Part shown: positions 19,280 to 61,767 of the stretch, one piece after another
How positions within the stretch are numbered: position 1 is the first letter of the stretch
How the letters are laid out: every line of letters begins with the position of its first letter
Virus record (IMG/VR): IMGVR_UViG_3300025674_000016
Coordinates: 32,001-96,000 of that record
Reading direction: 5' to 3' (one strand)
DNA from: a virus
DNA length: 64,000 nt
The notes under the pieces: generated by a model
The model's input: the letters and a program-made list of their open reading frames with translations, nothing else
Database searches by the model: none
What the model was told of the DNA's origin: nothing
Made by a program: the position numbers and the translations under genes

Positions 19280-22200
19280 ATGTCAATTAAAGATCTTTTT
19301 CAACCCAAAAGAGCCCTTAAAGTTTTATCCCAAAAAAGTGTGGAAGAAGTGGCATCTGATGTCGAATCAGTCGAGTATCTAAGATTAGCCATTCAAGATA
19401 AGAAAAGATTCTTTCCACAAGTCGATTTTTCAAGACCAGGTACTTTTTCAAAGTTTGGGTCAGCGGAAGAATATTTCGAATCTTCTATCTTCAGAATATA
19501 CGCGCAATATCCATATGACGGCTCCTTAAAAGAAAAGTTACAATGGGAACTAAGCTCTTCGTATTTGGATCTTCATATATTTGAAAACGAGTACCCTAGG
19601 ACTAATGGCTACGCTATTTTCTCACCAAGCGGGTGGGGTACTCTTCAAACAACTGTAGGTGATTATGGAGAGTCAAATAGTGATGAGTATATCACCTTAA
19701 AGGGTGGCCCCAACAAAGATCCCAACACGTCAGAAACAAAAAAGATTTTTCCATCAGACGGTGGCATTGCAAACATTTATGACACCTCCAATAATAGAGA
19801 ATCTAACTTAAAATTTGATCTTAGAAATAACGGCGTTACCATTGAATTCTGGTTTAAGCAGGACTCTTTTAATGTTGCAGATACTAAAAAGCAAGTAATT
19901 TTTGATCTATGGAACGGGCAGCCTTCTTCAAGTGCTGATTACGGAAGGCTAACGCTAGAAATATCAGGCACAGCCGCCTCTGAGTCTCCTTTTTATGTCA
20001 CGGCCCAATCGGGTACAGCGGGCTGTTTTAATGAACAAATTGGCTCTTCTATCGCAGGGACTGGCTCTTTAGAGACTTGGAAGCATTACGCCTTCAATTT
20101 TACAAAAAAGATTACAAGCCCCTTTTCTTCCAATGTTCAAGTGAAGTTTTATGTAAACGGGGATCTCAATTCAACTCAATTATTGGGAACCAAAGGGATT
20201 AACGAAGTAACTGGGGATTTAATAGCAAATATTGGAGCCTTGAGGACTTCTCCATCTGGAAACATATTCCACAACCAAGAAATGGAAGGATGGGGCAAAC
20301 TATCTGGCTCCATAGATGAATTTAGATTTTGGAAAACAAGTAGAAGTTCAAAGCAGATCGGCAGATATTGGTTCTCCCAAGTTGGCGGAGGGACAAATAC
20401 AGACCTTGCAAATACAGATCTGGGCGTTTACTATAAATTTAATGAAGGCATAACAGAGAAATCTTCTATTGATTCTGTTGTTTTGGACTATTCTGGTCGC
20501 ATAACTAATGGAACGTGGACTGGGTATACTACTAGTTCTAGAAACACTGGGTCTGCGATGGTGCTGTCTAATGCAGCCGAAAGAGAATTTAAAGACCCTA
20601 TCATTAGAACAAATCACCCAACTTTAAGTGACTTTATCACTTCCAAGAAATTAGATGGTAAGGCATTCGATAGCTATAATTCTTCACAACTTTATAAATC
20701 TTTGCCTGCTTGGGTGCTAGAGGAGGACGAAGAGCACTCTGCTAATATTAAAAAATTAACACAAATAATGTCAAATTATTTTGACACTTTGCATTTGCAG
20801 ATGGACTTGTTTCCTCACATACAAGATGTAACTTATCCCTCTGGATCGCTTACTGGTATTAGTCGCCCCCTTCCTTTCTCAAAAGATCTTTTAACGAGCA
20901 GGGGACTTATCACGCCGGACATCTTTGCAGATGCAACGGTTTTAGAGTATATTGGTGATAGAGATGAAGATAGGGAATATGAAAACGACCTTGAGACAAT
21001 AAAGAATACAATTTATAAAAATATTTATAATAACTTATCTTTTATTTTTAAGTCCAAAGGAACAGAAAAGTCTTTTAGAAATCTCATTAGATGCTTTGGT
21101 GTAGATGATGAACTAGTGAAAGTAAATATGTATGCCAATGAATATACATATACTTTCGAAAATAACTATAAACATATATCAAGGCGAACAAACTACGCCG
21201 ATTTTAATCACCCAACAAGATTCAACGCAACAGTTCACCAATATCCAGACTCAAACAACGTCAATACTGTATCTTACATAAGCGGGTCTAAAAGTGATTA
21301 CTTAGAGCAGGGACTAGCGATTACTTTTGAGACCGAGGTTCTTTTCCCTAAAACATTTGACAAATCCTCAGTACACTTTTTTGATCCTCCTGGGTTGGTA
21401 TCGAGTTTGTTTGGTGCTCACACGGCAGACACTAGCTTATCAGATACGGACACTACGACCGCCACTCCAGATGTTGCCAATTTTCAAGTATTTTCTGTCA
21501 GAAGAGATGAAACTTCTAAAGATGTTACGTTTAAACTAACAGGCTCTGCTGGCGGATATTTCCCAGAGTTAACAAGTAGTATCTTTGCAGACACTTATGA
21601 TAACGAAAGATGGCTCTTGGCTGTTAGAGTTGCGCCAACAAAGTTTCCGAATGTAGGTCAACTAGACGGCGATGACGATACATATACAATAAATTTTTAT
21701 GGTGTCAACACTACATTCGGAGACGTTAGTGGCGAGTTTGAATTAACGGGAACAATACCTAGCAGCCAAGGACTAGAGATTGTATCAAATCCAAAAAGAT
21801 TTTTTATAGGTGCCCATAGAGAAAATCTGACAGGATCGGTTCTAAACAAAACTGATGTAAAAATAAGCAATTGCAAGGTCTGGTATGATTATATATCTAA
21901 CGAAGATCTAAAAGCACACTCTCTAGATCCAGCGAGCTTTGGTACATCAAACCCTTCCCGTAGGGCTTTCCTGCATGAAGACAACATTGGAAAGAAGTCT
22001 ATTTCGCAGGCAGAGACTTTAGCATTACACTGGACATTTGAAACAGTAACCGGCTCAGATAGCGCAGGAAAGTTTTTAGTACCAGACTTATCTTCAGGCT
22101 CAGTGCTCGATGAAAATAGACATGGCTGGATTAGCAAAATTACAAATAGACAGCACTCTGGGCAGGGTTATGGATTCCAATCAAACTTTACAAGCTCTAT

Positions 22201-25200
22201 TGATAAAGATTTTATATTCTCATACAAACAGCAATTGCCTGAGATTCTTTCTAGTGAGGACACAGTAAACATTGTTAATCAAGATGACCTTGTTTTTACT
22301 AGAGAAAACAGACCTCAAAGCTTTTTCTTTGCAATCGAAAAAAGCATGTATCAGGAAATTTCCTATGAGATCCTAAAGATGTTTTCGACAATGAAAGATT
22401 TTAATAATCTTATAGGAGAGCCTGTTCACCGATATCGACAAAGCTATAAAAGTCTTGAAAAACTAAGACAACTATACTTTGAAAGAGTCAGAAACACACC
22501 AGATTTTGAAAGATTTGTTGATTTTTACAAATGGTTTGATGATTCATTATCTGACTTGATAAGACAACTAGTGCCAGCTTCTGCAATGATGTCAGAAGAA
22601 ATAATGACTGTAGTTGAAAGTCATATTTTAGAAAGAAACAAATATTGGCATAAATTCCCAACTTTAGAATCGCAACAAATAGAACCTGAAGCTGGGGCAC
22701 GAGGAATAAACGAGCTTTCTTATAACTGGAAAATTGGCCATGCACCAGTGTCTAGTAGAGAAAGTGATAATTGTTTTTGGTGGAACCAGAAAGCAGAAAG
22801 AGAAGGGGTCGTATCAAGTGGCGATGCGGGGGCCGATTCTAGTAGAGGGTCTATTTTATCTGCTAGTTTGCAAGTATTCAACAGAAAATTGTCCACCCCA
22901 CACAAATTAGTTGTCGGAGAATCTTCTGTTATAAAGTCTGGCGTGTCAATTCACCACAACAACAAGGCCGATTTTTTCAAATCTGAAATCTCCACGCTTG
23001 GAACGCCAAAGACAATAACTGCATCTTTTGATAATTATTTTAAAGATTGCAACGATGACAGACCAGAGACAGAAAAAACAAAAATATCTCTAAGTGTTGA
23101 GGATTTAAGTGTTTTAGACGGAGAGGCTAAAGGAGAAATGGTGTTGCCCTTCTCCGTATTCAGCTCTTCTGCAAACCCTCTTTTTGCAATTTCAACAGAC
23201 AAAGAGATAACAAATCTTCATAAAGATTATTCCAATAAATCATATGAAACCCCACTTCAAGGTCCGTTCACTCAAGAACATGTCGGTGGCCTACAGCATA
23301 GAAACATAGGTGCAATTGATTTTCTAGCCAATACAGATAACAATACAATCAATAGCAGACCTGAAGGTTTTAGAATTAGAATAAATGGAAGCACTGTATA
23401 TGTTGATGGTGCTAGCAAGGGCACTGACGGGGTTACAAACCTAAACCTGCCAAGAGCAATTTTCTTTAGGGATGAGACCTCCAAAAGACCAGTAAACATA
23501 AAAAACATAAAGTCATCTACTTCAAATGGCATCTTAGGCAACTACACCGAAGATCACGAGATAGTGCAAACATCAAATAGGAGAATAAACAATTCTTGGT
23601 TTACCTATAGTGGCAGCGCAGAAAATCTTGAGACACCAAGTGTCTTGGCTGATTTGGATTCTTTTGTAATAGGGACTGGTTCTTTCTCATCTCTAGAAGC
23701 CACAGAATATACCAAGCCACAAAGAGGCAAGAATAAACATGTTATCGTTGAAAGATTCTCAGCCCCCGGCGGTCCAGAAACAGCGGGTGATGCCAATGGC
23801 GGTATTGGACTAGATGCCTTATCTGCGGAATATTCAATCTATAACATGATGAATTACCGCAACAACATTGTTAGAACATCACTAAACGATAGATCGATTG
23901 AGCATGCAGGTCAATTTGGAACAAGGCAAGGCACATCAATTAGTGAATTGGATTACGATAACACTGCTGCTTTCCACAAAGTAAATCGTAACACCCTTAG
24001 AAGAATAGAGTTGAGTGGTTCTAACGACACTATTGTCACAGGAACAGTGAGAGACAATCTTTTCATTCAGCACCCTATTCCTCAAGGAGATTTAGGGTAT
24101 GCTTGGATTACTGCCTCTGCAATTAGCGCACCACTAGGTTACGCTAGGGATTCAAGACAATACCCAACAGCAGCAGATACAATTACATTTCTGAGTGCTA
24201 GCTCTTTTGGCCTCTATGACGACGGAGGAGACATATATTTTGGAATCGATGAGGTAGAGGCAGGGCTCAGCGGATATCCAATGTTTTATAATTTTGATTT
24301 TGTTGGATTAAACATAGGACTGAGCGAGCCTATAGTTTCATCAACCAACACTATTGGATTAGATTCTAGTGAAGATGTTGCAGAATATATAAACAGAACA
24401 GTTGCAATTAGTTTGGGACCATATGACGACTATCGAGCCCGCGTATTAAACTCTATTAACCTTAACAGAAACGGCCCTTATGGATATCCAACCTTCAAAC
24501 AAATTAGAACTGGTGAGCATAAAGTAGCCAGAGACCAGAGGAAAAATAACAGACTAGACCATATTACACCAGCTAGGAGAACTAGGGTATTAGGTAGAGA
24601 AATCGCAATACCACCTGTTAAATCAACGGTTATAGAACCCCCTCTTTCTTCAAGATTCAAGCCAATGTCTCATACATTACGAATGGAAACTAGAATTGAA
24701 GAAGGCGAGAGCGAAGAAAAAGAATTTATTCTTAAGCATACATATGCAAATAACTTGACTTATTTTGCAAACAAGTTCCTTGATGATAGGTTAACTAAAT
24801 TTGATGGCTCACCGCTACAAAATAATATCAGGCAGATCTATAACGAAATTACAGATCTTTATATCCGAGCAGATATGGACGACATGAGAAATCCAGTAAG
24901 CGATTTCATTTCTCTAAGATATAAAGAGACAATTTATCCGAGAGAAGAAAATACTTTCTTGAATAGAACAAGAAGCAGGGTAAACTACGACGTAGCAGAA
25001 ATATTAAAATGGAGAAGCTCGCGGATTGATCGAGCCTCTGGTTCCTTAACAAATTCGCTTGGAGAGCCGCAAACTGCTAGTTTATGGCCTCTAGATGGCC
25101 GCTTTGATGGAACTGGCTTTACGTCTGCAACAACTCTTAGGGTCGATCAAGTCGTGGCTGGCGCAGCGTCACCTGGGCTAGACAACTCTGGCGAACTGTT

Positions 25201-27858: not shown

Positions 27859-28893
27859 TTGACTTTCTTTAATAGAAAAGAAGAAGTAATAGACATAGAA
27901 CTAACACAGTTTGGCAAACACAAGCTATCTAAAGGCATGTTCAAGCCCGCTTATTATGCTTTTTTTGATGATGATGTAATTTATGATTATAAGTTTGCTG
28001 GTATTACCACAGAGACTCAAAATCAAATAACCGACAGAATCAAAGAAACTCCAAGACTTAGAACTCAGTATGCATATAGTGGAATAGAATCTGAGATAAC
28101 AAAAAATATAGCCGACATAAGAAGAGAAAATACAGTTGGAGATAGATTAGAGTTCTTGATGATCCAGCCAACAGCAGAAAAGCATTTCAACAGTGCATCA
28201 CCAATTGGCAATTCACAACTAGGAACTCAGAAATCTCCAACATGGCAATTAAATTTTCTAAAAGGCACAATAAGTGGATCTGTGTCAATACAAACCAATG
28301 CAGAGCAACCGTCTTTGAGAATACCTCAAGTAGATGTAGAGGTAAAATATGTAACCAATGTGCTTAGAGTTGATCAAGTGCCCGAAGAAAATGAAGCTTG
28401 GAATGATTCTGCTACCGATACAACATTAAATATTGAATTTGAAGATGGAACAGATATACATGTAAAAGAAGATTATGTGGTCCTGCAAGTTGAAGAGCTT
28501 AACAGTTTAAACTTAAATAAAGAATTTGATATAGAGGTCTTTAAAGTAGAGAAAGAAGTTGTAAATGGCGAAACAACTGATAGAGAAATGCTGATCCCGC
28601 TCAAGTTTCAACCTGATTTCCAAAAAAATTATAGAATTACTGATAACAATGTTTATGTTCCAACAAGAACTAGAAGACAAGAGATATATGCTCCTGAAAG
28701 AGATAACGTTGAATATTTTCTAGACATAGATATAGATTCGCAAATTGATTCTCAATTGATGTGTGAATTGAAACCAGCAGACAGGACAAAGGGTCTATAT
28801 TCTAAAAGATTCTACGAGTGTGAAGATGTGGTGCAGGAAGTTGACAATATTTATGAACCAGAGTCTCCTTATGAAGACCCGTGTGAGGACTAA
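27859..28893 (+). CDS. probable baseplate/tail structural protein
   Basis: N-terminus IDIELTQFGKHKLSKG.F...YAFFDDDVIY resembles that of the 35621 protein. Confidence 0.55.
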   Translation: MTFFNRKEEVIDIELTQFGKHKLSKGMFKPAYYAFFDDDVIYDYKFAGITTETQNQITDRIKETPRLRTQYAYSGIESEITKNIADIRRENTVGDRLEFLMIQPTAEKHFNSASPIGNSQLGTQKSPTWQLNFLKGTISGSVSIQTNAEQPSLRIPQVDVEVKYVTNVLRVDQVPEENEAWNDSATDTTLNIEFEDGTDIHVKEDYVVLQVEELNSLNLNKEFDIEVFKVEKEVVNGETTDREMLIPLKFQPDFQKNYRITDNNVYVPTRTRRQEIYAPERDNVEYFLDIDIDSQIDSQLMCELKPADRTKGLYSKRFYECEDVVQEVDNIYEPESPYEDPCED

Positions 28894-31800
28894 TGGCTAA
28901 TTTAAGATTTGATACAAGAAGTATATTGGGGACTTTAGTTCCTAATGCCTATATTGATAAGATTACTCTAGAATCTAGTGGCGATGTTAATGTAGAGAAA
29001 AATCCTCATATTGATGAAGTTGCATCTTTTGGGCAGCGAAATATTAGAACAACAACTGACGAGCTAGGCCAACAGTTTATATTGACTGATGAAGAAGAAA
29101 CAGAGCAATTTGACGAGAACCAAGTCCTTGGCGGCGCAGGGTCTTTTTTAACAGTCAAAGTTGACGTGCTTTTAAAAGATATTATAGAAGACAACGCCAT
29201 CTCTTCTTGGCTGGAACAGCGCGATGTTCTTGCGCAGACCCCAAACCTACTTTCACTTCTTAATGTTGCTGCAATTGTTAGTACAGATAAAGATATAACA
29301 AATGTAATTTTAAGATCTAATAATTCGATTGCAGATATGGTCTTTGGCGGGGCAAGCTTAAAATCCAACATAATAAGCTATATATCCCCAAGAATTGGCA
29401 TAAAATCAGATCAAATATTAAACAACCCAGCATATCAAAGAATCCTAGACACTAGGGCAGAAGGCAACAGGCCGCGCTGCGAAGAGAACATAAGAGCAGA
29501 GTCGATTAGATTCAGAATATCTAATAGTAATATTGGCACTCGTGGAAGGTCAGAAATACAAGAAACATCAGACGGAGTTAGAATTAGAAATTTTAATATA
29601 AGATTTCAATTTACAGATATAAAAAATATAAATCCAAATGATTTAGATATTTTTGTTTTTGCATACATTGATATAAATAATTTTTCAGAACAATTACTTG
29701 GATTAGATACGCAATATAACTATAATAGATCTGCTTTACAATTTGCCACTGGCAATGCCGCACATAGATCTATTATATCCAATGGGTCAATTGTCAGAAA
29801 TGCTACTGCATTTAGAAAGTCAGATGGATCTTTTTGGATAGGGCCAGTTCACCAAATGCCCAACGGTGCATGGATGGCGGGGGCTTCTCATGGGGGAGGA
29901 GGTCCAGAAATATTTTTAGAAAAAGTAGTACTGCCTAACATATCCATCCAAGACTTTAGAAATATTGAGAACATAGAAAAAAATATTCAAAATCTATCCC
30001 TTTTTGAATCCACCGCATATCCAGCCTTTGGCAAGATATTCAAAGAAAGAGTAAAGAAAAATCTAACAATCTCAGATGTATCATCTTATTTCTCAGATCT
30101 TTACCTATCCAGAAGCAAAGACGATAGCGCAACTTTATTCTTTTCTTTTAATTTTGATAAGTTTGCAAAAGAAAACACAACCTATCCAAACTTACTATCC
30201 TCTATGCCAAGCTTATTGGCCGAAAATTTTGAGATTTTAAATTTAAAAATAATAAGAAGAAGAGTTCAGAAGCCAAGCAACTTTAAAAATAGTGAAATAG
30301 GATTCGAAGTTGACAGCAGAGAAATACATATATTCGATAAAGAACAAGTAGAGTCCACAGTAATACAGGCCAAGCAAGTTGGATCTTCAATACCCTCTTT
30401 AGAGGGCGCTATTTTTGGAAATTCAATTAGAGAGCTAAGAGCCACTCAAGAAATTGGAGTAAGATGCTTCTCGGTGAAAGACAGGTCCATAGGATCTTCT
30501 ACTGATGGTTTTTATCAATATGGCGTCGAAATACAAGTAAGAGATTCTTTGGCAGACTTTTTAAATTCCAAACTCGCACAACTTGTTCAAGAAAGAAAAA
30601 ACCTTTATAATTATTTTGTGGATGCATCGCGCCCATTTGGATCTCATAGAGATCCAGAAGAGTTACCAAGAGACCCACACGTTAATGTTCTTAGGCGATC
30701 CATTTCAAGCGAACCAGAAGAAGAAGAAAGAGGAAACTATAATCTATACACGAACCGCTTTACCCAAGGGTTTATTGAAAAAATTGAATCAGATTACGCA
30801 ACAAGAGAAAACCAGAAGCCTTGGATAAGAGCAACTTCTTTGATGACAGAAATACTCTTAATCTTATCTGGTGAATCTATAGGCACAGGGACTGATTTTA
30901 ATTATTTATTTGCAAGAGATATATGGACCCTATGTTCCCCGCAAACTGGTACGCCTGACGGAATTCAAACAGTTATTGGTCTTTTAGATCGGATAATCAG
31001 CAGAATGAGCAATATGTTGGGAGCCAGCCACTCAACAGTAACTGAGGACTCTACTGGTGCGACTAGAAGAAATAGTTTAGATGGCGGGGGATCTAGCTCT
31101 TCTTCTTCCGAGGCAAAGAAGAATATTCATACAATAAAATATTATTTTAATAATGCAATTTTTGATTCAAATATAATGAAGCAAACTGGTTTTCACTTCT
31201 TGCCTAGGGTCGGACAAAATGCAAGTGATTTTATTAGCGAAGGTTTTGCGGGAACAACAACTCTAACCTCTGGGCAGTTTAGAGGTAGACATGTAACAGA
31301 GGTTTTGAAATATTTTAATGATCTGAACCCGCAACTTTCCACAGAAGAGGTGACTGATTTTGAACTTATTCAAATGCTAGTAAATATTAATCCATCTAGC
31401 TTTAGTTACTTATCTACATCTACAGTCATGACAAACGGACAATCTTTCTTCTTGGACGGAGAAAGCTCAGACGATAATATTGCTATTTTGGCTAGCAATA
31501 TTATGAACCTTAAGTCGCCCCCAAACGAACCAAAAAGGATGCTCTCTCCAGTCGGCAGAAGCGCGAACGAATGGAATGAAATAACGACCTTAAAAGATAG
31601 AATTATTAGAGACAATTTGATAGATGTGTTAGCCGATAAAAATTGCACAATAGAGACCCCAGCATCACCAGCACTGTTGGTAGAAGATTTAACAATGTCT
31701 CGTTTTCAAACGAGATTGCAGAGAGATAGCGAATCTGACTTATCCGGGCAGAACGTTAATTTTAGAGATTACTTAGGAGAGTCATCTCAAGCCCCAAATC

Positions 31801-43691: not shown

Positions 43692-43850
43692 GTGAAAATT
43701 AAAAAAGGCAGATTGCGACAAATAGTTAAAGAAGAATTAGATAAGTTTGTTGCAAAAGTAAACACTCGTACCCTGAACGAAAGCAAATCAACCCCAGATA
43801 AAATTATAGCTCTTTTGGAAGAACTAGAAAAAGATGGCAATAAAAACTAA
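43692..43850 (+). CDS. 52-aa protein with MKIxKxxLxQIxKEE leader (absent from ORF track)
   Basis: Read manually: MKIKKGRLRQIVKEELDKFVAKVNTRTLNESKSTPDKIIALLEELEKDGNKN; GGAGG RBS. Confidence 0.75.
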   Translation: MKIKKGRLRQIVKEELDKFVAKVNTRTLNESKSTPDKIIALLEELEKDGNKN

Positions 43851-46321: not shown

Positions 46322-47320
46322 ATGACATATCCATTACCTATTTTAACTTGGGAAAGAAGCGATATAAGCTCGTTTTCAAGTCCAACTGTTTTTGATATCT
46401 TGACATCCCTTAATAGTATTTTTGTAAGTTCTAGTTATTGGGAAGTAAAATCAACAGATATATCTATTACTGGGTCTTCCGATTATTATCTTGAGGTTGG
46501 GCCTATTACTAGCGCATCTTCTTCCTATGTTAACCAAAGAATTATTTTTGCTGGTGGTGCCAACCCAAATTCCATGTCAGTGGGATATACAGCGAATGCC
46601 AGCAGGCTCATGATTAACTACTGCCCAGACATAACAGGCCGAACAGAATCAGCAGCAAATTGGAAAACGGCAGATCCATTCTCTGGTTCTAGTATACCTG
46701 GTAAGGGCTTTGTCAAGCTAGGAGATACGTTTTCTACTATTACTCGTCTCTATGGCTTGATATGTCAAGAGGGGGTTATTTTAAATCTTAGAAAGGGGCT
46801 AGGGACTAACACTGCCTATCCATTCATGGCCGGTGCCCTTGTTGACCCCGGCCATGGAAACGGAGGGGACGCAAACAATCGACGTTGGATTTTGGCCTCT
46901 CAAGGAAGTTATGGAACATGGAATTCATCAACGCATGCTGCCATACCACAGACATCCGCCAATTTTTTTCTAAAAAACACAAGCACCACAAATGACTATC
47001 CTCACGCTTTTGTATGGAAAGAGTCTGACGACACTTGGGACTATAGTGTGGTGTGTGATACTGCGCACGATATCGAAGCAACATTGAGCAACAATAGAGA
47101 TATTGTTGATGACCAAGGATACATTGTACCACCACCAATGAGGGTTGTGGGGGGTAACGGCTCCCCAAATCGGGCTTACGGCTTTTTAAGGCAGATTTAT
47201 TTTTGTATTATTGGACAAGACGCAGTAGTAAAGCAAGGCTTAACGAGCAATGATTTATATTTTGTGTGGAGCCCGGTGAGTTCTAGTGACGGTGATGCCT
47301 TCATGGTAACTAATTTTTAA
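46322..47320 (+). CDS. hypothetical protein, tandem paralogue A
   Basis: Colinear similarity with 47333-48367. Confidence 0.75.
   Translation: MTYPLPILTWERSDISSFSSPTVFDILTSLNSIFVSSSYWEVKSTDISITGSSDYYLEVGPITSASSSYVNQRIIFAGGANPNSMSVGYTANASRLMINYCPDITGRTESAANWKTADPFSGSSIPGKGFVKLGDTFSTITRLYGLICQEGVILNLRKGLGTNTAYPFMAGALVDPGHGNGGDANNRRWILASQGSYGTWNSSTHAAIPQTSANFFLKNTSTTNDYPHAFVWKESDDTWDYSVVCDTAHDIEATLSNNRDIVDDQGYIVPPPMRVVGGNGSPNRAYGFLRQIYFCIIGQDAVVKQGLTSNDLYFVWSPVSSSDGDAFMVTNF
46912..46991 (+). repeat. 80-bp exact direct repeat (second copy 47941-48020)
   Basis: tggaacatggaattcatca...aagcaccacaa identical in both paralogues. Confidence 0.9.
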
Positions 47321-47332
47321 AAGGAGAAGACA

Positions 47333-48367
47333 ATGACATACCCACTACCTACTTTAACTTGGGAGATGAGTGAACAAGAAACTTTTTCAAGTCCAACTAT
47401 CTTTGATATCTTAACATCTCTTAATAATATTTTTACAAGCGCATCATACTGGGAGGTTAAAAATTCAAGCCTCGCATCGACCGGCTCTTCTGATCATTAT
47501 CTTGAGGTTGGACCTATTACTAGTGCCTCTGCATCTTACGCAGATCAAAGAATTATTTTTGCTGGCGGCGCCAACCCAAATACCATGGCATCATATTACA
47601 CACAGGTTTCCGACCGTTTAATGATTAATTTTTGCCCGGATATAACAAACAGAACACAGACAGCAGCAGATTGGAAAACAGCCGATCCATTTGATGGAGC
47701 AGACATACCAGGAACAGGCTTTGTTCAGCTTGGAACCTCATATAGCAGTATGAGTAGGATTCATGCGATCACTTGCCAAGAGGGGGTTATTTTGAATTTG
47801 CGAAGAGGAATTGGTAATAACACTGCCTATCCATTCATGGCCGGGGCTCTTGTTGACCCCGGCCACAGCAACGGAGGGGACGCAAATAATCGACGTTGGA
47901 TCTTGGCCTCTCAAGGGGGGGGCACGACGTATTCTCCATTTGGAACATGGAATTCATCAACGCATGCTGCCATACCACAGACATCCGCCAATTTTTTTCT
48001 AAAAAACACAAGCACCACAAGTAACTATCCTCACGCTTTTGTCTTAAAAACCTCCACTAATAGTTGGGACAGCAATGTAGTATGCGATACTGCGCACGAT
48101 ATTGAGGCAACCTTAAGTTCATTTAGAGACATCCTTGATGATCAGGGATACTTGGTACTTCCCTCAACTAGAGTAGTTAGCGGCAATCCAAAGTCTTCGC
48201 CAAGCTTAATGTACGGTTTCTTAAGGCAGATTTATTTTTGCATCAATGCTAGGGATAGAGAGTCTGGGCAAAGTTCGGATGGAGAAAACATATTTTTTGT
48301 ATGGGGGCCAGTTCAGGATGAAGCGTCTAGTCCTGCTGATTCTTTTATGGTAACAAACTTTTCATGA
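47333..48367 (+). CDS. hypothetical protein, tandem paralogue B
   Basis: Colinear similarity with 46322-47320. Confidence 0.75.
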   Translation: MTYPLPTLTWEMSEQETFSSPTIFDILTSLNNIFTSASYWEVKNSSLASTGSSDHYLEVGPITSASASYADQRIIFAGGANPNTMASYYTQVSDRLMINFCPDITNRTQTAADWKTADPFDGADIPGTGFVQLGTSYSSMSRIHAITCQEGVILNLRRGIGNNTAYPFMAGALVDPGHSNGGDANNRRWILASQGGGTTYSPFGTWNSSTHAAIPQTSANFFLKNTSTTSNYPHAFVLKTSTNSWDSNVVCDTAHDIEATLSSFRDILDDQGYLVLPSTRVVSGNPKSSPSLMYGFLRQIYFCINARDRESGQSSDGENIFFVWGPVQDEASSPADSFMVTNFS

Positions 48368-48781: not shown

Positions 48782-49378
48782 ATGAAATTATTACTTGAAC
48801 GTTGGCGAAAATATTTGAATGAGCAGGATGAGCACGCGCTCTTAAATGAAGCTACAGATTTAGTAAAAAATGGCGAGAACATTATAATGTTTTCAGATTA
48901 TGCTAAGAAGCACATTGAGAGTGGCCACAAGAAACCCGGACTTGGTTCTATCTTTGCCGATTTTGACCTCTCTTTGGTTAGCAAAACTTTAGGCACGATC
49001 CCCCTAGAAGGGAATGGTGGAGTCTATTCAGTGGAAGTTCCGGGCGTTGGATATGATTTGGTGTTGCCAATGGACGAAGCCTTGCAATTACCGGACGCAC
49101 AGAAAACAGTCGTTACAAAAGAAGAACGCCAAGGCCCAGTTGAGGTTATTGGCATCAAAACCTCTAAGCCGCTTTCAGGGTTTTTGCAAAATAAGCTTTC
49201 AGTTGTTGTTAGACAAACAAAAAATATGCAATATGTACCCGATGATGTAAAAGAGCAAGTTGCTGATGCTGTCGCGCAAGGACGCGTCTATTCTGTTTTG
49301 AGCGCTTGGCCCGGACGAGGCGACGTGCCCCCTTCAAGCAAATGGGGAGAGGACTGGGCGGTAATTATACCTTCTTGA
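48782..49378 (+). CDS. hypothetical protein with MKLLLERWRKYLNE leader
   Basis: GGAG RBS; two LNE sites in the first 23 aa. Confidence 0.7.
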   Translation: MKLLLERWRKYLNEQDEHALLNEATDLVKNGENIIMFSDYAKKHIESGHKKPGLGSIFADFDLSLVSKTLGTIPLEGNGGVYSVEVPGVGYDLVLPMDEALQLPDAQKTVVTKEERQGPVEVIGIKTSKPLSGFLQNKLSVVVRQTKNMQYVPDDVKEQVADAVAQGRVYSVLSAWPGRGDVPPSSKWGEDWAVIIPS

Positions 49379-49405
49379 AAGAGAACTTAAATTTAGGAGA
49401 TTAAT

Positions 49406-49852
49406 ATGAAAATTACTAAATCAAAACTAAAACAACTTATAAGAGAAGAAATTTCAAAAGTTATTCCAGAAGTTTACTATCTGGAACCAAAGGGCAAGCC
49501 CAGAGCAGCGTATCAAGATTATGAAAATGAAGATTTTCAATATGAAAATGCCGCCAACATGCAAAATAGTGTTAGCAATATACTAGAGCTTCACAAAGAA
49601 CTATGGGACGACTTCTACGACATTGAAGAAGAAAGGACGGATAAAGTTGATTATGACCCTGACCCCGGTGGAGCAGGGACAGCAGATAAATACTTGGAAC
49701 GGATATATAGAGAAATGGGTGAACCATTTGCGTTTTTGGTTAGTAAATACTTGGAGAAAAACAAAATCCCAGCGGAGCAATTATCTAGTGACGTATTAAA
49801 TCCAGATGAGGATAGTCGAGACTACGAATATTATACTGATTTGCCAAAATAA
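49406..49852 (+). CDS. acidic hypothetical protein with MKITKSKLKQLIREE leader
   Basis: AGGAG RBS; shared leader. Confidence 0.75.
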   Translation: MKITKSKLKQLIREEISKVIPEVYYLEPKGKPRAAYQDYENEDFQYENAANMQNSVSNILELHKELWDDFYDIEEERTDKVDYDPDPGGAGTADKYLERIYREMGEPFAFLVSKYLEKNKIPAEQLSSDVLNPDEDSRDYEYYTDLPK

Positions 49853-49876
49853 ATAAAACTATACGGAGCGCTTTCA

Positions 49877-50383
49877 ATGAAAATTACTAAATCTAGATTG
49901 CAGCAGATTATAAAAGAAGAAATCCAAGCTGAAATGAAAAAAAACATAGCTTATTCTGGTGTTGTTCTTGACGATAAAAGCGTAGAAAAATTAAAGGCAG
50001 CAGCTAAAGCCATAGGTGTGCCTGAAGGTTTTGTTTTTAAAACAAATGCTGGGGCTCCTTTACCCCACCACATGACAATTGTGGCTTTTAAACCAATTGT
50101 TTACTCAAAAGGAAATAAATCGCATGATTTTAGTGAACATTATCCTGTTGGTGGAGAAGTAACGCTAACAGTAACACACATTGGATTTGATAATGAAGCA
50201 ATGGCTGCCAAAGTTGATCCGCCTGGCCCAATATCTACTAAAAGAATTAACTTTCCTCACATCACAATAGCTATCCGCGAAGGGGGGAAGCCTTCTAATT
50301 CGAATGATATACTCGATAAAAATTTCCAAAAAGTCGAAGAGTTTGAAGTTACGGGCACAGTACAAGAGGTTCCACAAGGATAG
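49877..50383 (+). CDS. 2H phosphoesterase-family protein with MKITKSRLQQIIKEE leader
   Basis: Two HxT motifs (HHMTI, PHITI) about 60 aa apart. Confidence 0.7.
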   Translation: MKITKSRLQQIIKEEIQAEMKKNIAYSGVVLDDKSVEKLKAAAKAIGVPEGFVFKTNAGAPLPHHMTIVAFKPIVYSKGNKSHDFSEHYPVGGEVTLTVTHIGFDNEAMAAKVDPPGPISTKRINFPHITIAIREGGKPSNSNDILDKNFQKVEEFEVTGTVQEVPQG

Positions 50384-50412
50384 AAGTAAAAAGGCCAATT
50401 GGAGGAGAAAAA

Positions 50413-50799
50413 ATGAAAATTACTAAATCAAAACTAAAACAACTTATAAAAGAAGAGCTAGAGCAAGTGGTTGAAGAGGGGGAACTGGACGAAGGGTTCC
50501 TTGACCGCTTGATGGGCAGGAGCATGAAGAAAGGCGGAGACATGGTTAAGCCAAAAGTTTATGCTCCCGACAACAGAGGGACAATCAGAGACCTCCAGAT
50601 GGACAAGGACGAAATGGGTGACGCTATCGAAGAGTTCAATTTGTCTCTTAAAGACCTAGACGACAGAATGAAAAGTGAACTGTCCAAAGTGAGGGACATG
50701 GTGCTCGATCTGCAAGATAAAGTTCCTAGCGGCGAAGCTTTTAATAAGATAATTAAGAACTTAGACGACAGAATTAAGGCACTAGAGGGGGGACGATAA
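50413..50799 (+). CDS. coiled-coil hypothetical protein with MKITKSKLKQLIKEE leader
   Basis: GGAGG RBS; shared leader; LDEG site. Confidence 0.75.
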   Translation: MKITKSKLKQLIKEELEQVVEEGELDEGFLDRLMGRSMKKGGDMVKPKVYAPDNRGTIRDLQMDKDEMGDAIEEFNLSLKDLDDRMKSELSKVRDMVLDLQDKVPSGEAFNKIIKNLDDRIKALEGGR

Positions 50800-51366
50800 G
50801 TGTCCACAGTATTAGAAATTATAAATGGTATCGCACAAGCAGCAGCAAACGCATATGATGGTGCTCACGATGAAAACGGCGAACCAATTAAAGTTGGTCT
50901 TAAGCGTGAAGAAGGTCACCCAATTCACGATAAGCGCGTAATGGACGGCTTTTCTGTTAAGTTTCAAGGGCCGTATCTCTGCATCTGCTACCACTCAGAG
51001 ATCAACCTTAAGGACGTTCAGGGCGATAAATTAGAAAAAGAAATCGAGCAGATGATTGCCAAGGTCGCAACCTTTTTAAAAAAAGAATACAAGCGAGTCA
51101 CTGGTAACACCTTGACCTTGACAAAAGATGGAGATGTCCAAGCAAGAATGGAATACATGAACCGTATTCGCTGCTGGGTCACTGCACAATGTGATTACAA
51201 GATCGGCGGCTTAGACTCCGAAGCTAGAAAGCAGCCCTCCGAAGACAGGCTAGAAAAAAACTTCAAAGACTTCTTGGCCTTAAGCGACGACAAAAGGCCG
51301 AAGAACGATAAAAGAAAAAAAGATAGCGACCCCACATTCACTCCTTGGAACATGCTAAAGAAATGA
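50800..51366 (+). CDS. hypothetical protein
   Basis: 188-aa ORF abutting both neighbours. Confidence 0.7.
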   Translation: MSTVLEIINGIAQAAANAYDGAHDENGEPIKVGLKREEGHPIHDKRVMDGFSVKFQGPYLCICYHSEINLKDVQGDKLEKEIEQMIAKVATFLKKEYKRVTGNTLTLTKDGDVQARMEYMNRIRCWVTAQCDYKIGGLDSEARKQPSEDRLEKNFKDFLALSDDKRPKNDKRKKDSDPTFTPWNMLKK

Positions 51367-51752
51367 GTTTATTAGAGCAAATAATCAGAGAACAAATAAA
51401 ACAAAGACTCAACGAGGCAGGCGAAGCAAGGATGAGCGTCCATCCGTTTGCAAACCACTTAGCCAATCAGAGAGATACAACACCTCAAGAAAACCTGTAC
51501 GATGATATCGTCAATGCAACTTTGATTAAAATGGTTTCTGCTCACACAGACGAGCAAGTAAGAGGTATTATTCGTGAACTGGCTGATAGCTATTCAACTG
51601 GACCTGCTGGCGTTGGTGGCAGGTTCTCTGATGCCCAAGTAGAAGAAATCCAAGATCTTGTGTACGATAAGATAGAGCAAAAATTAGATGTAAATTTGCG
51701 CTCCCACCTACCTCAAGACAGAGAACACCCTCTTTTTGTAAGCGAGGAGTAA
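51363..51752 (+). CDS. hypothetical protein with degenerate leader (MSLLEQIIREQIKQRLNEA)
   Basis: ATGA overlap start at 51363. Confidence 0.65.
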   Translation: MSLLEQIIREQIKQRLNEAGEARMSVHPFANHLANQRDTTPQENLYDDIVNATLIKMVSAHTDEQVRGIIRELADSYSTGPAGVGGRFSDAQVEEIQDLVYDKIEQKLDVNLRSHLPQDREHPLFVSEE

Positions 51753-57142: not shown

Positions 57143-57203
57143 CAGATGGAAGCTACAGCCAGTTCGTCGTTGTCGTAATGGCTGCATAATCGCGCTGGGG
57201 TGA
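57135..57203 (+). CDS. 22-aa Arg/Cys-rich micropeptide (absent from ORF track)
   Basis: MNNRWKLQPVRRCRNGCIIALG; GAGG RBS; overlaps upstream stop. Confidence 0.45.
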   Translation: MNNRWKLQPVRRCRNGCIIALG

Positions 57204-57226
57204 GCCCAGCCAATCGGAGAATTAAA

Positions 57227-57832
57227 ATGTCAGATATAAACAAATATTTAATTCGAGAGTTCTATGAACTTTGCGATGGTGGTAAATGCGAAGACTTTTT
57301 AACGGAGTCTGAAAAAAGAAGAGTCAGGGAGGGAAAGGTTACTATTCTTTCTGGGAAACTTCAAGAGGCGGAGTGTCTTAACGGCAACAAGCGTATTTAC
57401 CCCATGAACATATTAAAGCGAGAAGTTGAAAACTATCGTAAATTTGTCGAACAACGCAGGGCAATGGGCGAGCTAGATCACCCCGATTCAAGCGTTGTCA
57501 ACCTTCAAAATGTTTCACACATTGTTACAGATATCTGGTGGGACGGAAAGAAAGTAATGGGCAAGATTGAAGTCCTGAACACACCAAGCGGCAATATCCT
57601 TAAGAATCTTGTTGAGGCTGGTATCAAGATGGGCATCTCCTCTAGAGCACTCGGCAGCGTTACCCAGAGAAATGGCAAGACATATGTTGAGGATGATCTA
57701 CAACTAATTTGTTTCGATATGGTCAGCGAACCTTCGACACCAGATGCCTTTATGTTAAAAGAACATAGAATGAGAAATTCTAATTACGAACCCACAAACA
57801 TTCACAACTTATTGGACAGCATACTTAAATGA
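57227..57832 (+). CDS. gp21: prohead core protease (T4 gp21-like)
   Basis: NGNKRIYP, GELDHP, GISSRALGS, FDMVSEPSTPDA; start at ATG 57227 after GGAG. Confidence 0.92.
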   Translation: MSDINKYLIREFYELCDGGKCEDFLTESEKRRVREGKVTILSGKLQEAECLNGNKRIYPMNILKREVENYRKFVEQRRAMGELDHPDSSVVNLQNVSHIVTDIWWDGKKVMGKIEVLNTPSGNILKNLVEAGIKMGISSRALGSVTQRNGKTYVEDDLQLICFDMVSEPSTPDAFMLKEHRMRNSNYEPTNIHNLLDSILK

Positions 57833-58245
57833 AACGAAATGAATTAAAAAAAGTTTTAAAACCTCTTATTAAAGAGTGCATTAAAGAGGTTATTTTTGAA
57901 GAGGGAGTTTTATCTGGCTTGATATCAGAAGTTCTAAAAGGAACGTCCAGCGCACAACTGGTTAGTGAAGCCCCGCAAAAGAAAGTTCAAAAACCAAGGG
58001 CAAAGTCAATAGAAAAGCGGCCAGCCAGACAAGATAAGTTAAATGAAATGAGAAGATCACTCACCGAAGCTATCGGCAAAGATGCTTACGGTGGCGTGGA
58101 TATCTTCGAAGGCGTTCAGCCTATTTCAAAAGCAGGTACACCAGGACCAGCGGCACCATCAAGTCCGCTGCAAGCCTACGCACCAAACGATGCGGGTGTT
58201 GATATCAGTGCGATATTCAACCCAAATTGGAAAAATTTAGTATAA
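57829..58245 (+). CDS. hypothetical protein with leader-like N-terminus (LKPLIKECIKEVIFEE)
   Basis: ATGA overlap with the protease gene. Confidence 0.7.
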   Translation: MKRNELKKVLKPLIKECIKEVIFEEGVLSGLISEVLKGTSSAQLVSEAPQKKVQKPRAKSIEKRPARQDKLNEMRRSLTEAIGKDAYGGVDIFEGVQPISKAGTPGPAAPSSPLQAYAPNDAGVDISAIFNPNWKNLV

Positions 58246-58254
58246 GGAAAAGAG

Positions 58255-58518
58255 ATGTCAAGAGTAAACGCCGAGGTAAAGGTAAGAAGAGGAGAATCTG
58301 TCGAGAAAGCAATGCGAAAGCTCAAAAAGATCTTAAAGAAAACAGGTTTTCTTGATGAGCTAAGAGAGCGCCGATATTACGAAAAACCTTCTGTTACAAG
58401 AAGAAAAAATAAAGCAAAGCGCCAGAGGCTTATAGATAAACAAAACAAGCTTAGAAAACTTGAGGAAGAAAGATTATATAAGCCGAAGAAAAGGCGAAAC
58501 AAGAGGAGAGATAAATAA
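58255..58518 (+). CDS. rpsU: 30S ribosomal protein bS21 (phage-encoded)
   Basis: VKVRRGESVEKAMRKLKK...G...ELRERRYYEKPSVTRR. Confidence 0.9.
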   Translation: MSRVNAEVKVRRGESVEKAMRKLKKILKKTGFLDELRERRYYEKPSVTRRKNKAKRQRLIDKQNKLRKLEEERLYKPKKRRNKRRDK

Positions 58519-58937
58519 TGTCAACTTTTAATTATAAAGCGGGGATGTCTAGCGTTGGGCAGTATCAGATGAGTGCAATTCCATATGCTACTGCTTCTGT
58601 TAATGTTCCAGCCCTAGGAAATGACCCAGTGAGAATTGACTTTCCTAGAGTATCAAAATTTGTGACAATCAGGAATGTTATATCAACAGACGATGCTGAT
58701 GCAACTCTTAGAGTTGGCTTCTCCTCTATTGGCACCTCTGGATCTGTCTCAGGCCAAGACAACTATTTTACTCTTGCAAATGGTGAAAGCTATACTGGAG
58801 AGTGGAGAGTGAAAAGTGTTTACCTGCTGAGCGACTCGGCTTCCGAATCGTCTGCTTCAATTATTGCTGGTCTAACAACCGTGTCTACTAGCTCTATTGG
58901 TTTTGACAATTGGTCCGGCTCTCTGGGCGTCGGCTAA
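58518..58937 (+). CDS. probable virion (capsid decoration-like) protein
   Basis: Beta-rich, Ser-rich 139-aa ORF in the head operon. Confidence 0.55.
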   Translation: MSTFNYKAGMSSVGQYQMSAIPYATASVNVPALGNDPVRIDFPRVSKFVTIRNVISTDDADATLRVGFSSIGTSGSVSGQDNYFTLANGESYTGEWRVKSVYLLSDSASESSASIIAGLTTVSTSSIGFDNWSGSLGVG

Positions 58938-59006: not shown

Positions 59007-60011
59007 ATGAGTTCAATGCTAGAACAGGCTATTGTTGATGCTGCCGCACTTAAAGAAGCAGCATTGAAAAATGCCGAACAACAAGTTTTAGAAAGATATT
59101 CCAAAGATATAAAAGAAGCAGTGAATGCTTTATTGGAGCAGGACGAGCTGGAAGACGCGCCGCCCATGATGATGGAGCCAGAGCCCGTTATGGACGAAAT
59201 CCCCCCTGCTCCTGCCGCAGGCGAGAAGCTTTGTCCTTGCCCCGATGACGAAGAAGTTGTTGAATTAGATTTAGATAATCTAATGATGCAGGTCGATGAT
59301 GAAGAGCCAGATCCAGAAGATGCAATGGATCGAGAAGGTGTAGCTCAAGAGTTGGGCGATCAAGATGATCTTCTTGGTGGGGACTTAGGTGGCTTAGAAA
59401 CAGGCGACGAGGAAGAAGAAGGTCTTCAACTTGAAGAGAACATTGATATTGATGAATCAGATTTAATTGATCTTGTTGAGGAGCTTGTTTTCGATCACAT
59501 GTCGCAGCCTAGCGGAAACCCAACGGGCCTGCCTGTTGAGGATCTTCATAGAGAACAAGAGCTTGAGGAGCTAGCAAAGCAGATTCAACAAGCAAATGAA
59601 AAAAAGAAAGATCTTCAAGAATCACTTAAGGATTCAAGATCGGAGAACAATAAACTTAGAAGAACAGTTTTAAAACTAAAAGAAAAACTAGACGAAGCAT
59701 TGGTTTCCAATGCAAGACTAATTTATACAAACCGTGTGCTGGGGAACGACTCCCTGAATGAGCGACAAAAAGATAAAATTGTCGAAAAGATCTCCGAAGC
59801 ACGAACAATTGAAGAAGCCAAAATGATCCATGAGGCACTTCAAAGTGCAGTGGCGGGCACTTCCAAAAAGGAAGGTCCAAAATCACTGAACGAAGCAGTT
59901 TCACGTCAATCAACACAGGTTTTTTCACGTCGTCAACGATCCGAGACCAATCAGGTCAACGATCAATTTTTTAAGAAGATGCAGCGTTTAGCTGGCATCA
60001 AAAAGAATTAA
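59007..60011 (+). CDS. prohead scaffolding/core protein (gp22-like)
   Basis: Acidic plus coiled-coil, many [LI]xE sites, immediately upstream of the capsid gene. Confidence 0.7.
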   Translation: MSSMLEQAIVDAAALKEAALKNAEQQVLERYSKDIKEAVNALLEQDELEDAPPMMMEPEPVMDEIPPAPAAGEKLCPCPDDEEVVELDLDNLMMQVDDEEPDPEDAMDREGVAQELGDQDDLLGGDLGGLETGDEEEEGLQLEENIDIDESDLIDLVEELVFDHMSQPSGNPTGLPVEDLHREQELEELAKQIQQANEKKKDLQESLKDSRSENNKLRRTVLKLKEKLDEALVSNARLIYTNRVLGNDSLNERQKDKIVEKISEARTIEEAKMIHEALQSAVAGTSKKEGPKSLNEAVSRQSTQVFSRRQRSETNQVNDQFFKKMQRLAGIKKN

Positions 60012-60027
60012 GGAGATTAAAAAAACA

Positions 60028-61767
60028 ATGAGCGTTTTACAAAAGTTAACCGAAGGCATTGTTAATCGTAACATCCAGAAAGAGGGCGAAGCTCTTCTCC
60101 AGAAGTGGGAGCAGACTGGTCTTCTTGAGGGTATGGATAACGAAAATGCCCGTTCAAACATGGCTGTTCTCTTGGAGAACCAGGCCAAAGAGCTTCTCCG
60201 AGAGGCTTCTTCTATGGCGGCTGGTGATGTCGAAGGCTTTGCCAGCGTGGCATTCCCCATCGTCCGCCGAGTCTTTGGTGGTCTTATCGCCAACCAATTG
60301 GTCTCAGTCCAACCTATGAGCTTGCCTGCTGGCTTGATTTTCTTCCTTGACTTTACTTATACCGATAGCCGCGCTGGTCAAACTGCCGGTGAGTCGGTAT
60401 ATGGTGGTAATGTTGTTGGTAAGGGTCTTGTCGATGGTGTGGACCTGTCTCCGACTGGAGATACGCAAGCGGGTGGTTTTTATGACCTTAGCACTGGCTA
60501 TAGTTCTCCAACTGGCTCTGTTTCTGTTACCACAGCAGCACCAGACGGCTCTACTGGTGATTTGCCAACTGTGCTAACTGATGTTGCAGTTAGTGCTCTA
60601 TCGGAAGCACAAAAAAAGGCCCTCCAGTACGACCCGGATATCCTAGCAGATGCAAGCTTGAAAGTCACAGTTCACAAGTCGCCTAACGCTGCTACTTCCG
60701 ATTTCCCAAACTTGAATCTAAATGCCCTGACTGCAATTGAGGCATCTGGTATTGATGGTGTTCTAGTGCGAAGGCTAACTAGAATTGATAAAAACGATAG
60801 CAACAAATTAGTTTTTGTAGTTATTAGGGACGCTGCGACACCAGAGGCGCACGGAGCTATCACCTTTAACTATCCGATGACAGACAAGTATGAAGCTAGT
60901 ACCGCCATTGGTTCTGTTGTTGGTAACGTTCCATTTGGCCTTGAGGGTGCAGATGATGTGTCTGGCGGTGATTTTGACGGTTCAACCCGCGATAGAATCC
61001 CAGAGATTGATATCAAGGTCGATTCTGTCAGCGTGACCGCTGTCACCAAGAAGTTGAAGGCCAAGTGGACCCCTGAGTTGTCTCAGGATCTTAATGCTTT
61101 CCACAACATGGACGCAGAAGTAGAGCTTACATCGATCCTTTCCGAGCAGATTGCTCTTGAAATCGATCAGGAAATCTTGAATGATCTTGTTAAGGATGCT
61201 ACTGCTGGCACATACTATTGGAGCCGTCGCCCCGGTCGCTTTGTTGATCGCGGCACTGGCGATGATATCAGCGGCCTTTCTAACGAATCTCTCTTGGGTG
61301 CAGATTTCACTGGCACAGTCAGTGAATGGTACGAGACCCTTATTGAGACAATCAACGATGTCTCTGCGCAGATCCACCGCAAGACTCTGCGCGGCGGAGC
61401 TAACTTCTTGGTCTGTGGTCCTGAGACCGCAAATGTCCTAGAGTTCACCGCTGGTTTCCGCGCTAGCGTTACCCACGATGCAGATACTGGCCAAGCCGGT
61501 ACTGTTAAGATCGGTGCGATCTCCAAGAAGTTCGACGTTTACGTCGATCCTTACTTCCCAAGAAACGTGGTTCTAGTTGGCCGCAAGGGCTCCAGCTTCC
61601 TTGAAAGTGGCTACGTCTACGCACCTTATGTGCCTCTACAGGTCACGCCGACTATCTTCGGTGTTGAGGACTTTGTGCCTCGTAAGGGCGTTATGACGCG
61701 CTACGCCAAGAAGATGGTGAGGCCCGACATGTACGGCTTGGTTGTTATCAAGGACTTCCTTGGCTGA
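60028..61767 (+). CDS. gp23: major capsid protein (T4 gp23-like)
   Basis: KWEQTGLLEG, LLENQ, VQPMSLPAGLIF, KLKAKWTPELSQDLNAFH, EIDQEIL, YAPYVPL, GVMTRYA. Confidence 0.96.
   Translation: MSVLQKLTEGIVNRNIQKEGEALLQKWEQTGLLEGMDNENARSNMAVLLENQAKELLREASSMAAGDVEGFASVAFPIVRRVFGGLIANQLVSVQPMSLPAGLIFFLDFTYTDSRAGQTAGESVYGGNVVGKGLVDGVDLSPTGDTQAGGFYDLSTGYSSPTGSVSVTTAAPDGSTGDLPTVLTDVAVSALSEAQKKALQYDPDILADASLKVTVHKSPNAATSDFPNLNLNALTAIEASGIDGVLVRRLTRIDKNDSNKLVFVVIRDAATPEAHGAITFNYPMTDKYEASTAIGSVVGNVPFGLEGADDVSGGDFDGSTRDRIPEIDIKVDSVSVTAVTKKLKAKWTPELSQDLNAFHNMDAEVELTSILSEQIALEIDQEILNDLVKDATAGTYYWSRRPGRFVDRGTGDDISGLSNESLLGADFTGTVSEWYETLIETINDVSAQIHRKTLRGGANFLVCGPETANVLEFTAGFRASVTHDADTGQAGTVKIGAISKKFDVYVDPYFPRNVVLVGRKGSSFLESGYVYAPYVPLQVTPTIFGVEDFVPRKGVMTRYAKKMVRPDMYGLVVIKDFLG

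Follow-up and report, generated by a model that had tools for sequence, protein, structure and literature searches.

The window analysed here is a stretch of 64,000 nucleotides, bases 32001-96000 of a 155.7-kb IMG/VR virus genome that is T4-like and rated 86% complete, and nearly all genes of the window are found on the + strand. Within it, the stretch 48782-51752 adjoins the start of the terminase gene TerL, as was noted in an earlier reading of the bare letters (the original prediction), and contains several genes whose products begin with a short leader. It was proposed that this leader is a portable tag that loads unrelated proteins into the phage head, and that the tag is removed by a gp21-like protease encoded in the same window. 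Four of the open reading frames (ORFs), namely 49406, 49877 and 50413 with an ATG start and 43692 with a GTG start, share an N-terminus of 16 residues, M-K-I-[TK]-K-[SG]-[KR]-L-x-Q-[LI]-[IV]-[KR]-E-E-[IL], which we refer to as the class-A leader, and each of them is preceded by a Shine-Dalgarno site. These genes, one gene with a leader of a second class (W) and the genes of the head module are listed in Table 1.

Table 1. Leader-bearing and head-module genes, in window coordinates (HMM, score with the class-A leader hidden Markov model; SD, Shine-Dalgarno site; O/E, observed over expected number of [LI]-x-E sites)
Feature	Position	Strand	Evidence or remark
52-aa ORF, GTG start, class-A leader	43692..43850	+	HMM 30.5 bits; strong SD
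Class-W leader (residues 1-14) and conserved 175-aa body	48782..49378	+	N-terminus clustering
Class-A leader and orphan 126-aa body	49406..49852	+	HMM 32.0 bits
Class-A leader and 2H phosphoesterase body	49877..50383	+	HMM 33.3 bits
Class-A leader and acidic, helical 112-aa body	50413..50799	+	HMM 32.2 bits; without family match
129-aa protein directly upstream of TerL, diverged A-like N-terminus	51363..51752	+	HMM 3.9 bits
TerL	51757 (start)		Head module
gp20-type portal	53325		Head module
gp21-type prohead serine protease (Peptidase S77)	57200..57832	+	PF03420 E 1.9e-30; phrog_207 E 2e-54
138-aa protein after the protease	57829..58245	+	7 [LI]-x-E sites, O/E 4.2
Ribosomal protein S21 gene	58255-58518		phrog_21469 E 3e-13
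Acidic scaffold-like protein	59007..60011	+	16 [LI]-x-E sites, O/E 2.15; gp22 position, ahead of the capsid gene
gp23-type major capsid protein	60028..61767	+	phrog_138 E 5e-70

Leader-bearing genes and their bodies

A hidden Markov model (HMM) of the class-A leader was built from the four window ORFs and used to scan the complete set of 3270 six-frame segments of the genome, in which the four scored 30.5-33.3 bits (E 6e-9 to 5e-8). Past the leader, zero similarity was found among the four proteins by BLAST at E<=1e-3; the claim of one leader on four unrelated ORFs was borne out, and the full-length homology that had been named as refuting it was not seen. The motif I-[KR]-E occupies residues 12-14 in three of the four copies, the fourth (43692) having V-K-E. 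Outside the window the same scan returned five more class-A copies, at genome positions 2888, 3726, 119929, 6229 and 2168, one of which is internal to a 498-aa protein and one of which lies in a mini-ORF made of the leader only. The start of the 498-aa protein (genome 2165-3661) resembles class A weakly, and a strong copy lies inside it at residue 243, with pentapeptide-like repeats after it; two tagged genes have probably been fused here. The mini-ORF (genome 3696-3776, 28 kb before the window) has 26 codons, barely more than the leader and then a stop, and looks like a remnant of cargo exchange. Upstream of the leader genes T4-type late promoters (T-A-T-A-A-A-T-A) did not occur consistently, and these tightly packed genes are probably co-transcribed with their neighbours.

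Pfam and PHROG scans gave no match for most of the cargo in the window, including 49406 and 50413, and no relatives of the 49406 body were found among 1.84 billion representatives. Besides I-R-E at residues 12-14, 49406 has I-P-E at 20-22, and the short body of 43692 holds three [LI]-x-E motifs; the ORF at 50800 is without a leader. The body of 49877 contains two H-x-T motifs and matches the Pfam family tRNA_lig_CPD (PF08302) with 28.4 bits, the cut-off being 23; both motifs, H-M-T and H-I-T, are kept in its orthologue in the related genome G068.

ORF 48782 had been described as a looser variant of the same leader, and was found to belong to class W. It has L-N-E at residues 12-14, repeated at 21-23. 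In an AlphaFold2 model with a predicted local distance difference test (pLDDT) value of 87 the leader is a detached helix, residues 14-21 fall below 50 and the body lies above 90, and the low-confidence linker contains both L-N-E sites. The top rows for the body in VIA-align were CdiA-CT and RelE/ParE toxins, which are weak matches (Z<=6.3); Atlas structure matches had template modelling (TM) scores of 0.38-0.46, and no match in the PDB was found by Foldseek at E<=1e-3. Two His residues are kept throughout, or almost throughout, the 48782 family, and from the model the body is possibly a BECR-fold RNase-like domain.

Two further looser variants had been named. In 51363 an L-N-E at residues 16-18 is followed by an invariant body, and a closer A-like core is seen at the same place in two orthologues (P0093 and P0095); judged from these, the N-terminus of 51363 is a diverged A-like form. 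Its position would also fit a small terminase, and an Atlas search with this protein returned nothing. The leader-like stretch of 57829 was not significant in the six-frame scan and is a chance resemblance.

Leader classes and their exchange among bodies

Unbiased clustering of all N-termini of the genome recovered class A and, in addition, class W, which consists of 48782 and two genes elsewhere and which the original prediction had merged with class A. The class-W consensus has 14 residues, M-K-L-L-[LMF]-E-N-W-R-x-[YF]-L-[NK]-E, and its conservation falls to noise directly after E14. It was claimed that the similarity ends at an [IVL]xE motif; this holds for class W, which stops exactly at L-x-E, and does not hold for class A, which continues to residue 16. 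A third leader of 10 residues, class B (M-I-K-L-K-D-L-L-x-E), was first noticed in two relatives and is also common in IMG/VR. With degenerate DNA patterns class A was matched in at least 118 IMG/VR stretches, I12 and E14 being set by the search pattern in this wider sample, and class W in at least 119, and tagged genes number about 9-17 per genome.

Among the IMG/VR matches listed, 516 leader ORFs fell into at least 344 cargo clusters, 277 of which are singletons. Eighteen cargo clusters bear two or three leader classes, with homology starting directly after the [LI]-x-E of the leader. In one HAD family the body starts K-L-R-V-F-D-F-D-D-T straight after the L-N-E of leader W or the L-x-E of leader B, depending on the phage, and the orthologue of 49877 in G068 (186 kb, rated complete) has a class-W leader, with 46% identity to 49877 that begins at residue 17. 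In the 48782 family, comprising 86 homologue clusters with bodies 41-67% identical, the N-termini are W, A or a third leader. The anchor of the body could be placed in 70 members, 68 of which have [LIVM]-x-E 13-14 residues ahead of it, whichever the leader. One cargo family thus occurs with different leaders and one leader on hundreds of bodies, and there is hardly any doubt that the leaders are portable tags on unrelated cargo, as was originally predicted. Pfam domains are rare in the cargo; they include LRR, DnaJ, FliG_C and 2H phosphoesterase domains in class A, and SAM lyase, GNAT, NUDIX, zeta/AAA kinase, HAD and protein kinase domains in class W.

Compared over the first 200 residues, capsid proteins from leader-bearing contigs share 50-72% (mostly 59-72%) identity with that of the window, and the carriers hence form one clade of T4-like phages. 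The closest cultured relatives are distant; they are Microcystis phage Mel-JY01, whose capsid protein is 38% identical, Rhodothermus phage RM378, and Flavobacterium phage immuto, with a protease identity of 51%. A profile search for leader A in the cultured relatives HTVC008M, Mel-JY01, RM378, S-SSM7, Melnitz and LR756511 did not find it, while one truncated copy, which ends in I-K-E, was found in immuto (vB_FspM_immuto, gene 190); a tblastn search of the 23-aa leader against 50,697 phage records gave almost nothing, the query being too short. When 185,579 prokaryote genomes were searched with pattern A a single match was obtained, in the marine metagenome-assembled genome (MAG) 'Methylococcaceae bacterium TMED69'. 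In the matching contig (NHDW01000006.1, 306 kb; locus L420, 2734-7910, - strand) at least 12 consecutive genes start with an Arg-rich leader A; the contig is probably a mis-binned large phage, since the same MAG has an S77 protease gene.

A 37-kb record (G034), rated 97% complete by CheckV, was considered as an independent small-genome lineage and dropped, as its genes (TerL, portal, protease and sugar genes) are those of a fragment of a large T4-like genome. In this record the ORF after TerL (19949-24262, 1437 aa) is about twice the size of the window portal and the ORF after the protease (28300-31125, 941 aa) is far larger than the window capsid protein; both may contain inteins or insertions. 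In G068 (125-138 kb) and G017 (135-178 kb) 5-12 small proteins per genome (55-77 aa) start with M-[KQ]-V-G-D-L-[VI], which probably reflects paralogy over their whole length and not a fourth leader. A class-W core was also seen at C-termini, as [LIV]-E-R-W-x-[KR]-L-A-G or F-E-N-W-R-G-F-L-K-E-D-stop, in four members of the 48782 family (P0067, P0070, P0073 and P0085) and in the contig stretch L165 near position 4459 (- strand), the latter form standing directly before the next W-tagged gene. Such cores might have been left behind by recombination, or might be propeptides of the C-terminal kind seen in T4 Alt.

The prohead protease and its cleavage motif

A gp21-like protease is indeed encoded in the window, where the product of 57200-57832 matched the Peptidase S77 profile with 106.3 bits against a curated cut-off of 27, and this predicted protease is the enzyme proposed to cut the leaders. 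An S77 gene was found in 9 of the 10 leader-bearing records estimated to be at least 90% complete, and in 27/40, 13/37 and 11/24 of the contigs, mostly fragments, that bear leaders A, W and B, respectively. For class A the 27 contigs compare with 16 expected from completeness (P 3e-5), which argues for physical linkage to the head module. The delta domain of the window capsid protein 60028 (residues 1-59) aligns with that of T4 gp23 and has four L-x-E sites, and its L-R-E59 immediately precedes the mature part, marking the predicted maturation cut; T4 gp23 is cut after L-T-E65 (PMC5694885). At the expected cut L-[RK]-E is present in 26/26 capsid proteins of the clade. Given this conservation, and the richness in [LI]-x-E of the delta domain, of the scaffold-like 59007 and of 57829, the T4-type specificity of the protease has probably been retained.

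Proteins that reside in the prohead beside a protease of this specificity should avoid [LI]-x-E. The counts in a single window are too small for the test, which was made on 344 de-replicated cargo representatives with their leaders removed. The motif was found at an observed-to-expected ratio (O/E) of 0.81 (confidence interval, CI, 0.72-0.90) in these bodies and of 1.20 (CI 1.16-1.26) in 1235 clusters of neighbouring ORFs, which served as controls and had been called naively. In the cargo no depletion was seen of [LI]-x-D, -K, -Q and -R (O/E 1.16-1.32), and the depletion of [LI]-x-E holds for each leader class and in all strata of length and acidity (permutation p<=2e-4). In T4 IPII and IPIII the only [LI]-x-E is the one in the targeting sequence. 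The connection drawn by the original prediction between the leader and a gp21-type protease is thus upheld by several indirect lines (S77 in near-complete carriers, the junction motif, the capsid L-[RK]-E and the cargo depletion). Taken together, these sequence comparisons make it probable that the leaders are cut by the S77 head protease.

The 57829 product, which follows the protease, is probably a degradable prohead-core protein. The S21 gene lies within the head module, flanked by the protease and the scaffold-like gene, and is also present in the 37-kb fragment. Two 139-aa paralogues (window 58518-58937 and genome 129030-129449) have similar N-termini and zero [LI]-x-E. Directly upstream of the tagged cluster the tandem paralogues 46322-47320 (332 aa) and 47333-48367 (344 aa) share the N-terminus M-T-Y-P-L-P-x-L-T-W-E, and may be receptor-binding or fibre proteins.

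Proposed capsid targeting and its alternatives

The T4 capsid targeting sequence (CTS) was reportedly described by Mullaney and Black in 1996. Found on the internal proteins IPI-III and on Alt, it is the closest known system, and its use by T4-like phages for the packaging of varied proteins has already been proposed (PMC9026906, PMC3012670; the proposal in PMC9026906). We confirmed it at ipII and ipIII, the first 30 nt of which are identical. In both systems a short N-terminal propeptide (10-19 aa) ending in [LI]-x-E stands on unrelated proteins of a phage with an S77 protease, and the cargo varies among relatives. Replacement of the Glu by Asp stops T4 processing but leaves targeting (PMC9026906), and the marine cargo likewise avoids [LI]-x-E and not [LI]-x-D. 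The marine phages differ in having three leader classes where T4 has one, and about 9-17 tagged genes per genome with at least 344 cargo families where T4 has a handful; in addition, class A is longer and is conserved past the putative cut.

In the giant phages phiKZ, 201phi2-1 and SPN3US, propeptides of ejection or inner-body proteins are cut by gp21-related proteases (PMC5694885). As proposed for the marine leaders, N-terminal propeptides of head-internal proteins are there removed after x-x-E by a T4-like prohead protease, and the N-terminal 15 residues, thought to be CTS-like, are the same in two SPN3US paralogues. The giant-phage propeptides are, however, mostly over 100 aa, are not a shared portable tag and end in [AGS]-x-E, and the evidence for them is proteomic whereas that for the marine leaders is comparative. 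MuF-fused polymorphic toxins and PBECR nucleases (PF18819, PF18810) resemble the present case in that variable toxin-like domains, including BECR-fold RNases, are proposed to be carried in the capsid by a conserved module, but that carrier is a large upstream MuF head-morphogenesis domain and not a cleavable leader of 10-16 residues. MuF and PBECR domains belong to temperate phages. Shuffling of PeSL or promoter cassettes in the hyperplastic regions of T4-type phages (PMC2839356, PMC4122927) is similar in that short conserved units at gene boundaries accompany the gain, loss and swapping of small accessory genes, but those units are non-coding DNA motifs and the leader is a peptide with free synonymous variation. 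No description of the leader motif strings or of CTS-like tags in marine phages was found in the literature searched. New aspects are the scale, the exchange among three classes of leader, the evidence for a fixed junction, the signature of motif avoidance and the setting in uncultured marine phages.

We favour, with some reserve, the reading of the leaders as T4-like capsid-targeting propeptides. The N-terminal leader, a short amphipathic helix (16, 14 or 10 aa in classes A, W and B), would dock the protein to the scaffold core during prohead assembly, and the gp21-type S77 protease would cut behind the [LI]-x-E at the end of the leader or beyond it. The mature cargo would then remain in the head and enter the host along with the DNA. 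The docking, retention and injection steps are carried over from T4, and by this analogy the odds that the cargo is loaded into the capsid are slightly better than even. Tag and body are separate modules, so that recombination shifts tags between bodies, and the phages would therefore have a fast-changing set of pre-packaged accessory proteins. In the window the bodies are an RNase-like domain (a lead), a 2H phosphoesterase and orphans; candidates for packaging in the clade at large are RNase-like toxins, 2H phosphoesterase, SAM lyases, NUDIX proteins, kinases, GNATs, and J-domain and LRR proteins. Whether this large clade of abundant marine phages has an 'address code' of leaders A, W and B by which each virion is loaded with 10-20 different accessory proteins seems to us evenly balanced.

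Several observations weigh against capsid targeting. The leaders are without similarity to the T4 sequence M-K-T-Y-Q-E-F-I-A-E, with which, by eye, they have in common only the initial M-K and a terminal hydrophobic-x-E; lacking this homology, they would be an analogue or a very distant relative of the T4 CTS and not a member by descent. Class-A conservation runs two residues beyond I-x-E, with an invariant E15 at P1' of the putative cut and a hydrophobic residue at 16, and copy 43692 has V at P3, neither I nor L. In the unbiased set from three genomes strict [LI]-x-E is found in 13 of 17 class-W leaders (15 of 17 if V or M is allowed). For class W, contigs with S77 are not in excess (13 observed, 16 expected), so that linkage is not seen, and in G088, a 207-kb record rated complete with two class-B matches, S77, gp20 and gp23 were not detected. 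In two relatives rated 100% complete, one of which (G068) has terminal repeats, a distance of 50-125 kb separates most leader genes from the head genes, and they lie amid small accessory ORFs; such a position is expected of early genes, though T4 ip genes are likewise remote. NUDIX, HAD, kinase and GNAT cargo could equally be ordinary cytoplasmic early proteins.

The alternative that fares best, although we consider it unlikely, is that the leaders are docking or regulatory tags unrelated to capsids, a helix that binds a common partner (chaperone, hub or membrane) or marks early proteins for timed destruction, with the terminal [LI]-x-E as part of the binding surface. It would accommodate the remote accessory regions, the resemblance of cargo enzymes to early host-takeover functions and the class-A residues conserved past I-x-E, and leader A does weakly match the first helix of the HeH motif (PF21488, E 0.026), a match that spans a single helix and is below the cut-off. 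Left unexplained are the three dissimilar, interchangeable leaders that share only their N-terminal position and the terminal [LI]-x-E, the avoidance by the cargo of [LI]-x-E but not of [LI]-x-D, and the presence of S77 in near-complete carriers.

Less probable still is that the head protease cuts the leaders of proteins which are never delivered, the cargo consisting of auxiliary core or scaffold components or of decoys that are degraded and expelled in maturation. T4 gp22, gp67 and gp68 are degraded and expelled in this way; 57829, 59007 and the 52-aa 43692 are rich in [LI]-x-E, and many class-A cargoes are short, acidic and helical. Cargo bodies as a group are nonetheless depleted of cut sites, suggesting that they survive the protease, and folded enzymes are numerous among them (2H, NUDIX, SAM lyase, kinases and the RNase-like fold with pLDDT above 90).

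It was also considered that the similarity is kept at the level of nucleic acid, as a cassette for recombination or an element of translation initiation or regulation that lies at gene starts and to which the peptide is incidental. ORFs 49406 and 50413 have identical DNA over their first 37 nt, the mini-ORF at genome 3696 resembles a recombination scar and the leaders begin with A-rich codons. Against this, residues are fixed while codons vary among the 166 (A) and 126 (W) distinct DNA versions compared, with 35-41% of same-residue codon pairs differing synonymously; L8 is encoded by six codons, S6 by TCN and AGC and R9 by CGN and AGR. Copies stand on a start codon in 241/249 cases for class A and 146/147 for class W, and the DNA upstream of the leaders is conserved only at the Shine-Dalgarno site. 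The conservation of the leader acts at the protein level, which largely refutes nucleic acid as its cause and makes that explanation very improbable, while recombination at the leaders probably drives the swapping. That the leader proteins are paralogues of one family has nothing in its favour except the common N-terminus and can practically be dismissed, given the missing BLAST similarity past the leader in the window, the singleton clusters, and the differing Pfam domains and folds.

If the leaders do target capsids, hundreds of families in ocean viromes, most of them annotated as 'hypothetical', would be marked as delivered with the DNA, and since such cargo would act ahead of phage gene expression its members would be foremost among the candidates for roles in counter-defence and host takeover. 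What is known as a mechanism of a few T-even coliphages would extend to a major marine phage group, in which the tag itself would have diversified into classes exchanged by recombination. The pre-made effector set of an uncultured phage could then be read from its genome, with cargo that evolves to avoid the motif of the protease, and the leaders would offer short ready-made packaging tags for the engineering of non-model phages. Avoidance of [LI]-x-E offers a general test, based on sequence alone, by which to ask which proteins of a phage that encodes gp21 are exposed to the prohead interior.

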